From Eledone cirrhosa (taxonomy: Eukaryota): a stretch of DNA of 64,000 bases. Position numbers and translations under genes: made by a program. Shown piece after piece: positions 10,939 through 62,916 of this stretch. How positions within the stretch are numbered: the stretch's first letter is position 1; the number at the start of each line of letters is the position of its first letter. The notes under the pieces were generated by a model. That model searched no databases. It was not told the origin of the DNA and was given only the letters and a program-made list of their open reading frames with translations. The stretch is taken from contig OZ024740.1 in assembly GCA_964016885.1 (NCBI GenBank), positions 175,026,001-175,090,000 on the forward strand, given 5' to 3'.

Positions 10939-11278
10939 TGGAGGCACATGGCTTAGTGGTTAGAGCATTGGCCTTGCAATCAAAAGGTTGTGAGTTCAAT
11001 TCTCAGACCGGGTTATGTGTTGTTTCCTTGAGCAAGACACTTTATTTCACATTGCTCCAGTTTACTCAGCTGTAGAAATGAGATGATAGGGACTGATGTC
11101 CCTATCATTCCACTGCAAAGTGGTCGTGGAGGTGCCACAGCTAAAAAGCACCCAGCACTCACTGTAAATGAGGTTGGTGTTAGGAAGGGCATCCAGCTGT
11201 AGAAATCAAGCCAGAATCTGTTCCCGTCCCACCCTTGCAAGCAGGGAAAAGCGGACGTAAAATGAAATGATGAAATGC
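10939..11278 (+). mobile_element. SINE family 1
   Basis: ggaggcacatggcttagtggttagagc head with A/B boxes; RTE-like tail. Confidence 0.92.
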
Positions 11279-34749: not shown

Positions 34750-35102
34750 ATGGAGGCACATGGCTTAGTGGTTAGAGCATTGGCCTTGCAATCGAAAGGT
34801 TGTGAGTTCAATTCTCAGACCGGGTGGTGTGTTGTTTCCTTGAGCAAGACACTTTATTTCACATTGCTCCAGTTTACTCAGCTGTAGAAATGAGATGATA
34901 GGGACTGGGGTCCATATCATTCCACTGCAAAGTGGTCGTGGAGGTGCCACAGCAAAAAAGAACCCAGCACTCACTGTAAATGAGGTTGGTATTAGGAAGG
35001 GCATCCAGCTGTATAAATCGAGCCAGAATCAGTTCCTGTCCCACCCTTGCAAGCAGGGAAAAGCGGACGTAAAATGATGATGATGATGATGATGATGATG
35101 AT
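34750..35102 (+). mobile_element. SINE family 1
   Basis: Full head, core and (ATG)n tail. Confidence 0.93.
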
Positions 35103-38237: not shown

Positions 38238-38587
38238 CATCATTTTCATTTCATCATTTCATTTTACGTCCGCTTTTCCCTGCTTGCAAGGGTGGGACGG
38301 GAACTGATTCTGGCTCGATTTCTACAGCTGGATGCCCTTCCTAACACCAACCTCATTTACAGTGAGTGCTGGGTGCTTTTTTGCCGTGGCACCTCCACGA
38401 CCACTTTGCAGTGGAATGATAGGGACCCCAGTCCCTATCATCTCATTTCTACAGCTGAGGAAACTGGAGCAATGTGAAATAAAGTGTCTTGCTCAAGGAA
38501 ACAACACATCACCCGGTCTGAGAATTGAACTCACAACCTTTCGATTGCAAGGCCAATGCTCTACCCATTAAGCCATGTGCCTCCATA
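38238..38587 (-). mobile_element. SINE family 1
   Basis: Reverse copy of 10939-11278. Confidence 0.93.
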
Positions 38588-39029: not shown

Positions 39030-39340
39030 CAATGACCAGTTTCTAGTTAATTCAATCAATGGAACAGCTTGTTCATGAAATTTAGATGTAAGTGGCTGAG
39101 CATTCTACAGACACGTGTATCCTTAGTGCAGTTTTCAGAGAGATTCAGCATAACAATGTATGACTATGCTGGCTCCTTGTAATACACGTACTGCTAATTT
39201 TTGCCAATTGAGTGGACTGAAGCAATGTTAAATAAAGTATCTTGTTCAAAGACATAATGCACTACTGAGTTTGAGAATCAAATTTACAACCTTACAATCA
39301 AAAGATGAACACACTAACATCTAAGCCATGTGCCTTCATG
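39030..39340 (-). mobile_element. Older SINE1-related element
   Basis: ctaagccatgtgccttca head and aagcaatgttaaataaagtatcttgttcaa core, with a different tail. Confidence 0.7.
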
Positions 39341-39704: not shown

Positions 39705-39741
<37 letters not shown>

Positions 39742-39743
<2 letters not shown>

Positions 39744-40315
39744 AAAAAGTATGACCCGACGGCAGAGCTCAAGTCGTTTCGACGGCTATTTCTGGACTAA
39801 ATTAGAATTTTTAGCCTGGTAAATAAATATCCGAACTTGTCAAGGGGTACTTCCTTATATGGGAAGATTGTAGTTGTCAAGAGGATTGGTCAAAATTTGT
39901 TGTAAACACAAATAAGTCTATCATGGCATTTGGTGGGAGGTGTGGGTGGCTGAACTTGCCTGTAGAACATTGAAAGGGTCATAGTGCAATTAGCCTGTAG
40001 AACAATGTTCTACAGGCAAGTTCAGCCACCCCCACCTCCCACCAAATGCCATGACAGTCTTATTTGTGTTTACAACAAATTTTGACCAATCCTCTTGACA
40101 ACTACAATCTTCCCATATAAGGAAATACCCCTTGACAAGTTTGGCTATTTATTTACCAGGCTAAAAATTCTAATTTAGTCCAGAAATAGCCGTCGAAACG
40201 GCTTGAGCTCTGCCGTCGGGGTCATACTTTTTCCAATTCCCACTCTACTATCCTAAGTATTGAGTACTCTGGTGCGTTATCGTCCATCTGGTTCCTTACC
40301 ACATTTCCTTCGTTA
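39742..40315. mobile_element. Fold-back HHR element (~230-bp arms + unpaired 3' tail) in (TA)n
   Basis: Arms 39742-39972 and 40003-40234; tail 40235-40315 shared with 62375-62453. Confidence 0.93.
40127..40222 (+). ncRNA. Type I hammerhead ribozyme, U3:A8 core variant
   Basis: acccc-TTGACAA-g..ggctattt..aaatagcc.tc-GAAA-cggc..gccg-TC-ggggt; all three stems pair. Confidence 0.8.
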
Positions 40316-40343
40316 TATACATATATATATATATATATATATA

Positions 40344-41527
40344 CTAGCAGCAGAACCCTGCGTTGCACGGGGTAGGAAACGTGAAATAGCACCACGTATA
40401 GACAAAGATTGAGGAATATAGCTGTGTACATTTTGAATTCCCTTATTCTCAGGGAATGATTGTTCATCTACTGGAAACGTAGAACACCAGCAGCCCGAAT
40501 CCAGTAGTAGCAATGTCAGTGGGCTGATTGTGGAAATCCTGTATGTGAAAGGAGTAAGTAAGTGTTGTGGGGCGATGTATGTCGTAAGTCTGTTCACGAA
40601 TTACGTCATGGATGGGGAACACATGTCAGTCTGAAGGAGCGACGTGTGAAAACCAAGTAGGGATGTACGTTTAAGTAGGGATATTGAGATGACGAAATCA
40701 GCGTGGCAACGCAGCTGCAGCAGAAGGTAGGTAGGTCATAGTGCAATTAACATAAATGCTGGGCGGCACTGGTTGCACTGCATTTACACAGCAACAAAGG
40801 TGCGACAAAAGGGGTCACCTCAGAATTAGCACAACCGCTGTTCAGCGTACTTGCGCAGGTCGTTCATACTGCAGTGTAGGTGCAACAAAAGGAGTATTAG
40901 TAGAAGTAGCACAAACGTGAGTTTTACGGTGTCAATAACTCGGCAACGTACACAGGGCCCGGATTTGCGCGTGATGAAAGCACGAAGCGTCAACAGGGCA
41001 ATAACAAAAATTTTAAGGTCCTCCTCATTTCCTCAATCCCCCGAAAATGGTTCTGCTTAAAAGTAAGTAAGTGTTGTGTCCTCTGTTAAATAAACCAAAT
41101 TTTTAACAAAATATTATACGCTATTTATGATGTTTAACTAGCGTTTATATTGAAAATGAAAATGTCATGTAATGCCCAATGCTAATTCGTAAATTTCCTA
41201 GAAACCATTAATGGAATCGGAAATGTTTTTTGTCCACAGCAATGCAAGGGGACTAACTAATGTGTGCTGCATATTTCAAGGAAATCGGCTGGATTATCTT
41301 TAAGTTACGCCTCAAAAATGCCTTTAAAATGCGGGGGGTTTTTCGCCTAAAAAAGTTTTTTTAATTTTTTTAGAACTGTTTCATTTGTATGTTGATTTTT
41401 AAATAAATAAATAATGATACTGGCTTAATTAAAGCATGTGTGAGTGGGAAAATGATCGAAGATTTTTGGTTTTATCCAGTGACTTCATTTCAGTATTATC
41501 ATTATTAGTATAAAGAAAGTATTATGA
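40344..41527 (-). mobile_element. Non-autonomous Helitron
   Basis: Minus-strand 3' end has hairpin cccgtgcaacgcaggg then CTAG|T; TC start near 41516-41527. Confidence 0.75.
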
Positions 41528-52414: not shown

Positions 52415-53000
52415 AATAGTTGTTTCTACTTTTGGCACAAGACCAGCAATTACTCAGTACATTATGGAAAATGATGGAGGCACATGGCTTAGTGGTTAAA
52501 GCATTGGCCTTGTGATCGAAAGGTTGTGAGTTCAATTCTCAGACCAGGTGATGTGTTGTTTCCTTGAGCAAGACACTTCATTTCACATTGCTCCAGTTTA
52601 CTCAGCTGTAGAAATGAGATGACAGAGACTGGGGTCCCTATCATTCCACTGCAAAGTGGTCGTGGAGGTGCCACAGTAAAAAAGCACCCAGCCCACACTG
52701 TAAAGTGGACGTGGAGGTGTGACGGCAAAAAAGCACCCAGCACTCACTATAAATGAGGTTGGTGTTAGGAAGGGCATCCATCTGTAGAAATCGAGCCAGA
52801 GTCAGTTCCCGTCCCATCCTTGCAAGCAGGGAAAAGTGGACGTAAAATGAAATGATGATGATTACTGGTTCTTTATTTTATCAACCCCGTAAGGATGAAA
52901 GGAAAAATTAACCTCAACGGGATTTGAACTCAGACCATAAAGGGACGTAACTATGCTGGAAAGCATGGTGTCCGACCTTCTACCGATACTGGCAATTCAC
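52415..53000 (-). mobile_element. SINE2 interrupted by SINE1
   Basis: SINE2 halves at 52415-52464 and 52861-53000. Confidence 0.85.
52473..52860 (+). mobile_element. SINE family 1 (extra 3' repeat unit)
   Basis: Full head, core and tail. Confidence 0.93.
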
Positions 53001-60908: not shown

Positions 60909-61198
60909 TGATGTTTCAGCAAAGTAAGTTGATAGTTTGCTAAACTTTAGGTATGTATGAATATATATATATATCAGATAGGGTGTGGTAAAATACCCAC
61001 CAGAGTACCCGATACTTGGGGTAGTTGAATGGGTAATATGAACAGATTCAGGACCCCGACGGCTGAGCTCTGGTAGTTTTGACAGATCTAGCTGTCGAAA
61101 TGGCCAGAGCTCAGCCGTCGGGGTCCTGAATCTGTTCATATTACTCACTCAACTACCCCAAGTATCGGGTACTCTGGTGGGTATTTTACCACACCCTA

Positions 61199-62269: not shown

Positions 62270-62453
62270 ATAGGAACCAGTAAGACCCCGACAGCTGAGC
62301 TCAAGCCGTTTCGACGGCTAATTTCGACGTCGAAACGGCTTGAGCTCAGCTGTCGGGGTCTTACTGGTTCCTATTACCCACTCTACTACCTCAAGTATTG
62401 AGTACTTTGGTGCGTTATGGTCCACCTGGTTCCTTACCACATTTCCTTCGTTA
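62270..62453. mobile_element. Short fold-back HHR-family element with 3' tail in (TA)n
   Basis: Arms 62270-62316 and 62328-62374; tail homologous to 40235-40315. Confidence 0.92.
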
Positions 62454-62916
62454 TATATATATATATTTTTTTTTTTGTTACATGTTTCATTTAAAATGCA
62501 TATGTGTAAAGATAAGATTTCTAAGATGTATTAAGAGCTACAAAATAGATAAATTATATTGCTCAATGGTCTTTTTAAAACTCCAGCCATTCCTCTGCAA
62601 AAGCAAACACCATACAATTGACACAATCTTCACTATTTTCTCACCCCTCTGCTACCTTACTCTCTTTCTCCACATACCAACCATGCCCACCCCCGTCTAT
62701 CATGTTTCTTCCCCCTTCTCTTTTTATACACTCTTAAAAAATCTAGTTGTTGAGATGATATTCAGTACTTTCTTCTAAGTTTCACTTGTGTCTTTATTAT
62801 TTTGTTTTGGTGGGGTATTTTTTAAAGTATGTTTTTCATGAATATTTAGTTGTTCTTTATTCACTGAGAGAGAAAATATCAATAAAACATATCTCACTCC
62901 CTCTCTCATATATATA

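Follow-up and report, generated by a model that had tools for sequence, protein, structure and literature searches.

A 578-bp insert between two (TA)n runs in the 64-kb stretch of Eledone cirrhosa DNA analysed here (the window) folds back on itself and carries a hammerhead-like motif on both strands. This raises the questions of what kind of element it derives from, how its arms came to be inverted, and whether the putative ribozyme ever cuts. The arms (39739-39972 and 40003-40237) agree in 226 of 235 alignment columns (96.2%; 8 mismatches and one gap), which bears out the inverted arms of about 230 bp described in the initial annotation. On the left the (TA)n target microsatellite occupies 39709..39741 and on the right 40317..40343. 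The left arm (39742..39972, minus strand), delimited by alignment and by the arm-end classes given below, is inverted and 5'-truncated; it has a "short" end and no tail, and its outer end lies 17 nt past the predicted cut. The right arm (40003..40237, plus strand) is the direct, 5'-truncated one and comprises the last part of the 3' UTR and the hammerhead of a subfamily-A Penelope-like element (PLE) of the Hydra clade. It alone continues into a "tail" of about 80 nt (40238..40316, plus strand), which reaches a "long" end at +97 to +99 and corresponds to the start of the next monomer in arrays. The one-sided tail, and the fact that both ends lie in (TA)n, extend the initial annotation.

The arms are separated by a junction spacer (39973..40002). 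Sequence comparison revealed that its 16 nt at 39977-39992 recur unchanged at 40734-40749, which lies 415 nt into the right flank, and that 39993-40002 duplicate 10 nt of the arm end. The 16-nt match is private to the window among the stored loci, and a private, flank-derived spacer fits end-joining repair. The source of the match lies inside a second repeat (40344-41200), which adjoins the right (TA)n and whose first 340 nt match two other stored loci.

In the hammerhead core, C3 and G8 normally form a Watson-Crick pair. Motif matching and folding place a type-I hammerhead motif with a U3:A8 core in the right arm (40127..40222, plus strand; numbering as in PMC3088659), with a predicted cut after 40217. 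Stem I begins at 40127-40131, followed by U3 (40132), A8 (40137), G10.1 (40139), C11.1 (40194), GAAA (40195-40198), GUC (40215-40217) and the 3' strand of stem I (40218-40222), all at the positions originally claimed. The stem II domain is 56 nt long, and the 5-bp stem III has a palindromic loop. In the left arm a damaged copy (39754..39848, minus strand) has its predicted cut between 39758 and 39757. As had been described, its core is kept with a few mismatches around it: stem I lacks one G, and stems II and III have one change each. An Rfam scan of the window gave 51 matches at E up to 1, none of them to a hammerhead or other ribozyme. Several tRNA-like matches just below the Rfam threshold (10949-11006, 34761-34818, 38518-38575, 52485-52542 and 39269-39339) are probably the heads of tRNA-derived SINEs. 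Two mini fold-backs lacking the 5' half of the core are also present in the window. One is an older, lineage B-like copy of the same superfamily (60995..61182) and the other a young subfamily C copy with a short arm and a tail arm (62270..62457).

A genome search with 40110-40315 returned 3,074 candidates, and the best of the 40 that were scored are 93-96% identical. Copies of the family coincide at their 3' ends and vary at their 5' ends, and the longer ones extend upstream, on the ribozyme's strand, into sequence coding for a reverse transcriptase (RT) and a GIY-YIG endonuclease. For example, the long copy L036, to which the window arm is 94.6% identical, carries RT and GIY-YIG pieces upstream of a window-type 3' end. 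The window copy belongs to the older subfamily A and is 87% identical to young subfamily C over the shared part. The suspected link to PLEs and their inverted pseudo-LTRs (pLTRs) was right. The proposal of a non-coding, retrozyme-like family has to be abandoned, as the RT and GIY-YIG frame includes intact versions of 717 residues in a sister subfamily.

A protein search of the genome gave 61,412 candidates; 150 were scored and many long open frames were seen. Twelve fetched stretches contained 15 frames that span 784-819 codons between stops, or 717 residues when counted from the ATG. In one array four full units of 3,531 nt differ by 0-1 base, and in tandem arrays the tail is simply where the following unit begins. 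The genome contains 31,068 exact matches to a portion of the tail, corresponding to at least 31,000 insertions. In the array L096-L097 (G000:C1:437.20-437.21 Mb) four full 3,531-nt units alternate ABAB at one base, a pattern less suggestive of random RT error than of a template two units long or of a subsequent duplication of two units. Between the two full units of L098 there are 8 differences.

The single ORF encodes RT followed by a C-terminal GIY-YIG domain, the latter called by motif match to a Hydra alignment. The intact protein was modelled with AlphaFold (pLDDT 85.6), and in a fold search its nearest neighbours were TERT and bacterial RTs; the search matched the RT only and not the GIY-YIG. 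Nothing significant was found when the intact protein or its alignment was compared with Pfam, NCBIfam and PDB sequences, and a search of this type with five homologues gave one GIY-YIG match, in a longer protein. In the available part of Craig et al. (2021, PMC8557442) the Hydra clade is defined by an RWK motif, DKT, a CxCX5C linker, CxxC and CxH motifs and the lack of CCHH. The protein contains RLRWR (RWK-like) and SDKT (DKT replacing DKG), and in alignment columns 690-830 the CxCX5C linker, with CxxC and CxH around conserved E and N and no CCHH. Compared by eye, it matches the Hydra alignment in the supplement of that paper. The Hydra clade of EN+ PLEs, which includes Hydra-1_Obim of Octopus bimaculoides, is among the closest systems known. 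When 8,000 candidates were scored, 2,049 proved to be relatives of the protein. Within the best 120, identities are mostly about 40%, and the first-ranked relative is named from a bivalve. Distant Hydra-like families, with 35-55% identity to the intact protein, lie near some copies (L037, with a 583-codon frame, L040, L213 and L230).

The mode of insertion is also that of EN+ PLEs, with partial or full tandems, an adjacent inverted and 5'-truncated copy, and a one-sided tail. The family shares the last two with the Hydra clade as described in the consulted part of PMC8557442, together with (TA)n targets and a sense-strand hammerhead near the 3' end. It differs in its unit length (3,531 nt against generally less than 3 kb) and in its tail (about 80 nt against 30-40). 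All 26 Hydra rows in File S2 of that paper have a C3 core, a short stem II and, by eye, G8, unlike the superfamily described here, in which U3:A8 or C3·A8 predominates and the stem II domain has 54-56 nt. The canonical CUGANGA hammerhead, an observed trait of the clade rather than part of its definition, is rare here. As the Hydra-1_Obim hammerhead is unrelated, the present family is a different one. The fold-back in the window is a dead, 5'-truncated, head-to-head insertion of an autonomous Hydra-clade PLE, and as such an ordinary dead copy. A contig from a second organism (run X5, organism B) spans the 5' half of the hammerhead region with 0 base differences and 1 gap, so from this alignment that organism too seems to have the young subfamily or one close to it.

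The outer ends of the arms fall at two fixed places. Among 219 distinct arms, 112 are short (near +17), 83 long (+97 to +99), 7 read-through and 17 other, and 195 of the 219 run into (TA)n at the two fixed sites, in both cases with three shared bases (TAT). Contigs of unstated kind, used for end positions only, likewise have loose (TA)n ends at both of these positions. Of 39 head-to-head pairs, 28 were simple and classifiable; 26 of these combine a short with a long arm, 2 are short + short and none is long + long. Inner ends are not constant among copies, and there is no fixed unit that repeats. In a set of 30 tail arms taken without selection, the cut site is crossed by 28, and 23 end between -20 and -53, within or next to stem II's 3' strand; the inverted partner often ends at a similar position. 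Since tail arms mostly stop in the stem II region, most copies lack half of the core. Most insertions are short, non-coding fold-backs.

These ends resemble the behaviour of PAc (Poseidon), a PLE of Anolis carolinensis studied in vitro (Frangieh et al. 2024, PMC11167929). In the available part of that study both strands of AT-rich targets are cut and extended, the RT starts at two internal sites bounding the tail, and uncut RNA is the main template. PAc initiates without homology to the target, whereas here both start sites share TAT with (TA)n. From the family, the coding frame, the target type, the two end sites, the core conservation and the cut-site insertions described below, which were observed directly, we infer the following course of events. 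Tandem copies would give rise to multimeric RNA, and the endonuclease would cut (TA)n. Both ends of the cut target would then prime on one element RNA (twin priming), one end at +17 and the other at about +98 from the predicted ribozyme cut site, yielding one arm without and one with a tail. The two cDNAs would return through the ribozyme, usually stall in stem II, and be end-joined head to head. Where the RNA had already cleaved itself and had not been rejoined, both cDNAs would instead run off at +1 and be joined with a few extra bases. Uncut or re-ligated RNA would allow whole units to be copied into tandem arrays; re-ligation to circles may be the source of the seamless ones, which uncut multimers would fit equally well. 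Cleavage by the hammerhead would be slow or regulated, with only a minority of templates cut. Taken as a whole, an autonomous Hydra-clade PLE with twin priming on one RNA at two sites, and with a predicted hammerhead that cuts a minority of templates, is the reading that we consider probable by a good margin of confidence.

The hammerhead core is under selection, as far as comparison of copies can tell. The pattern containing both halves of the U3:A8 core matched the genome 5,099 times and its reversed control 0 times. Patterns free of the core recovered one and the same core, in every young lineage (5,335 matches, 100 listed) and in lineage B (92 of 92 listed). When column majorities of A (67 copies) and B (28) were compared, all 14 core columns and all 10 stem I columns agreed (two stem I columns and G10.1 being search anchors), against 16 of 32 in distal stem II, 46 of 110 upstream and 6 of 15 downstream. 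The type-I core (U4 G5 A6, A9, G12 A13 A14, A15.1-U16.1, H17) is present with N7 free: N7 is C, A, G or U depending on the subfamily.

Pairing was counted in a chosen set of 24 copies: 81% of cells pair, whereas slid controls reach 29-51%. Covariation, one of the proposed checks, supports three stems around the core, with double changes in 8 of 22 pairs, mainly in stem II, and with kinship inflating the counts; stem III is near invariant, and the pair 10.2-11.2 is unpaired in 17 of 24 rows. RNAalifold run on the 24 copies did not recover the three-way junction and returned stem III with a rival extension of it. The rows were picked by pattern and their 3-8 counts are not representative. Of the monomers folded, only that of subfamily C has the three-way junction as its best fold (probability 0.47). 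The hammerhead lies 2.8 kcal/mol above the best monomer fold in the window's right arm, 3.5 to 14 kcal/mol above it in six others folded, and 8.2 kcal/mol above the best fold in the left arm. The whole insert folds as a single duplex of -429 (plus strand) or -423 kcal/mol (minus strand), so a read-through transcript would bury the ribozyme. Transcripts from either strand had been envisaged as long hairpins containing a ribozyme. The long duplex is indeed predicted (235 bp); the idea that it is the working RNA fails, the ribozyme being buried on either strand, and on the folding models the whole hairpin is a by-product of insertion.

The 3-8 pair varies across the genome. With both core halves present there are 5,099 U:A, 1,521 C·A, 58 U·G and 18 C:G copies, and 0 in reversed controls. 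The pair is Watson-Crick in the window (U:A) and in most copies, and broken in lineages A' and D. U3-A8 is a published natural hammerhead variant (PMC3088659) that has already been reported in a PLE (PMC4209133). Its description as a tolerated covariant applies to the window and most copies; it is not a strict rule, given the C3·A8 copies. The warning that CUGANGA-only scans overlook such cores was justified, with only 18 C:G against the 5,099 U:A copies.

In a 47-row tree computed with B as outgroup after masking of positions 3, 7 and 8, the lineages branch in the order F (U·G), A (U:A), A'/D (C·A) and then C2a/C/E (U:A), and a single clade of U3 copies is rejected (p-AU 1e-29). Five odd or chimeric copies (L009, L216, L007, L156 and L181) and the window copy, which is too short, were left out of this tree. 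The descent of the young, intact subfamily from C·A ancestors is stable in these phylogenies, and the order of the first 3-8 steps is unsure, as the root shifted between trees. A model in which U3:A8 arose twice from C·A was dropped when the root moved after the masking of the three positions and the addition of rows. The old relatives L110, L113, L116 and L123 keep the canonical C3:G8 core; a search for old canonical lineages gave 30 matches, many of them unrelated, with few copies. A canonical C3:G8 sister subfamily among the young lineages was also considered and rejected, since the copies in question nest in C·A lineages and look like single mutants.

A 3-8 pair broken as C·A in 1,521 copies, on the path to the youngest subfamily, counts against a working ribozyme. 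The single changes C3G and G8C abolished the activity of another PLE hammerhead, according to the available part of PMC11167929. In the literature searched nothing relevant was found on G8A or C3·A8. Exchanges at 3-8 were reportedly the subject of a study by Przybilski and Hammann in 2007.

Whether the hammerhead cuts can be asked of the insertions themselves. A search of sequencing runs for the sequence listed no RNA run, an outcome that is neutral as evidence. The logic of the test is that an RT that meets an already cut RNA would make a cDNA ending at +1. A search for tail arms without the normal preceding bases gave 443 matches. Of the 100 listed, 51 have one extra G after C17; several others among the 443 are inserts in which both arms stop at the cut. 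In read-through copies, about half of the matches listed, five instead of four G directly follow C17 (L266, L268, L270-L273), which could reflect slippage in the homopolymer or, alternatively, a scar left where RNA was re-ligated at the cut.

A symmetric search that allowed at most 22 free bases gave 438 matches in subfamilies C, D and E. The first 60 of these minimal insertions (56 distinct) comprise 38 joins with a spacer, 6 that are flush at the site, and 12 of other kinds, either flush or with microhomology; flush joins at the cut site were left uncounted because of a 2-bp microhomology ambiguity. The 76 spacer-class arm ends fall mostly at +1 (51), with 16 at +2 to +4 and the other 9 upstream, and only 2 of the 76 are at -1; some end calls in older copies are shifted by point mutations. 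Both ends are at +1 in 20 of the 38 spacer junctions from these first 60 matches. A flat model, a crude null, predicts 9.4% per end and 0.8% for both ends. The spacers at cut-site joins are short and mostly A or T, and a few copy the arm. CpG decay was tried as the cause of single A/T spacers and discarded, with 8 such joins against 1 undecayed among the 56.

The signature is also seen in subfamilies A and A'. In subfamily A, to which the window copy belongs, 14 of 38 ends are at +1 with 3 double matches (first 30 of 48), and in A' 11 of 26 with 3 double matches (18 of 18). In A' the end signature accompanies C3 in 9 of 11 long copies, which form a biased sample. A search for joins at -18 to -40 gave 1,466 matches, mostly double-counted sites, and the 100 listed were by eye scattered and microhomology-led. 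Among 28 further or re-read loci, 24 tail arms start at +1: 17 with an inverted arm, 5 without one and 2 joined to the ORF. These loci were read manually; the automatic classification overlooks arms shorter than +4 and gets one wrong. In 15 of the 17 with an inverted arm, that arm halts at or short of -1. In L277:1500 and L404 the +1 tail arm is joined in direct orientation to the ORF of its own element, as if the RT had run off at the cut end and jumped back onto the RNA.

The class with both ends exact is rare, at about 0.7% of 22,212 tail arms (C/D/E), 5 of 5,434 (A) and 3 of 1,626 (A'). That so rare an end should be common to both arms suggests that their template was a single RNA or a dimer cut jointly. 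It is therefore likely, judging from the genomic copies, that the exact-cut insertions are a fossil of in vivo cleavage by the candidate hammerhead, and likewise likely that both arms were copied from one RNA. The available part of the PAc study records no reads ending at the cut site (PMC11167929), in contrast to the minority of inserts that end exactly there here. The stronger combined claim, that the PLE hammerhead cuts in vivo, that both arms come from one RNA, and that the C3·A8 core cut well enough to sustain a lineage of more than 1,500 copies up to the family active today, is put forward tentatively, at slightly less than an even chance.

The exact ends could have another origin. In the same PLE, +1 might be a transcription start or a cut made by a protein. 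PLE pLTRs contain internal promoters, as stated in the parts of PMC8557442 and PMC11167929 consulted, and +1 lies 190 nt upstream of the ATG. Moreover, in 5 of 20 spacers the base adjoining the tail arm is G, which a cap could explain; the other 15 of 20 end in A or T, which speaks against a transcription start. So does the position of the end on the exact bond predicted by hammerhead geometry, in a core that is conserved in the fashion of a ribozyme with N7 free. We consider this origin unlikely, though it is the best of the alternatives.

A second possibility is that the hammerhead is a dead relic, kept for protein binding or RT positioning, and that the +1 ends are RT stalls at RNA structure. 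The amplification of the C·A lineage to at least 1,521 copies and the crossing of the cut site by 28 of 30 tail arms would agree with this, as would the normal in vitro insertion of ribozyme-dead RNA of another PLE (in the available part of PMC11167929). The predicted helices, however, would halt RT at -1, +3 or +6 rather than at +1, and few ends are at -1. The 5' half of the core, although absent from most copies, is still conserved between lineages, and U3 was regained on the branch to the young subfamilies. A relic of this kind is improbable, more so than a transcription start.

The reading of the initial annotation, a retrozyme- or MITE-like non-coding fold-back that replicates as a unit, would account for the prevalence of short non-coding fold-backs and for arms that are 96% alike. 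It would not account for the variable inner ends, the lack of a fixed unit or the longer copies that reach the coding frame, nor for a spacer private to the window and a hairpin predicted to bury the ribozyme, and its probability is very small. Metazoan non-LTR retrozymes (PMC7761336, as far as its available part goes) also have type-I hammerheads, tandem units and a possible circular RNA intermediate. They are small non-coding tandem units, whereas the unit here is coding and 3.5 kb long (3,531 nt), and its short copies are products of inverted truncation. Finally, although long palindromes are generally prone to misassembly, an inversion created by the assembly is scarcely credible at all, since the arms differ at 9 of 235 columns and at their outer ends, the spacer holds flank-derived sequence, and inverted pairs occur at many loci with the short + long arrangement in 26 of 28.

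Another of the closest known systems is the hammerhead of Cercyon, a PLE of Schistosoma mansoni (Cervera and de la Pena 2014, PMC4209133). In the available part of that paper Cercyon has a U3-A8 core (about 1,300 matches), opposite-strand hammerhead pairs 100-700 bp apart and a palindromic loop III, as here. Its hammerheads are minimal and lack stem III, unlike the 5-bp stem III and very long stem II of the present family, and neither a C3·A8 lineage nor a class of insertions at the cut site is described in that part. Hydra PLEs, inverted pLTRs, tails and U3-A8 are already known from the portions of the literature consulted. Within those portions, which include few subscription papers, neither cut-site insertions nor a natural C3·A8 lineage nor the hammerhead of the present family turned up in any report.

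Near-perfect inverted repeats, which number in the tens of thousands across the genome, would form dsRNA wherever they are transcribed, and we speculate that this dsRNA might feed into small-RNA pathways or be a substrate of A-to-I editing. Of the approximately 6,700 motifs in the genome, nearly all would escape CUGANGA scans. The family offers a natural series of cores (C:G, U·G, U:A and C·A) within one scaffold. It is very large and recently active, so rare insertion intermediates can be read from the genome, and both the cleavage question and the origin of the inverted repeats of PLEs become directly testable. If the combined claim above holds, the putative ribozyme would act as a switch, slow by design, that sets whether templates are linear, circular or multimeric.
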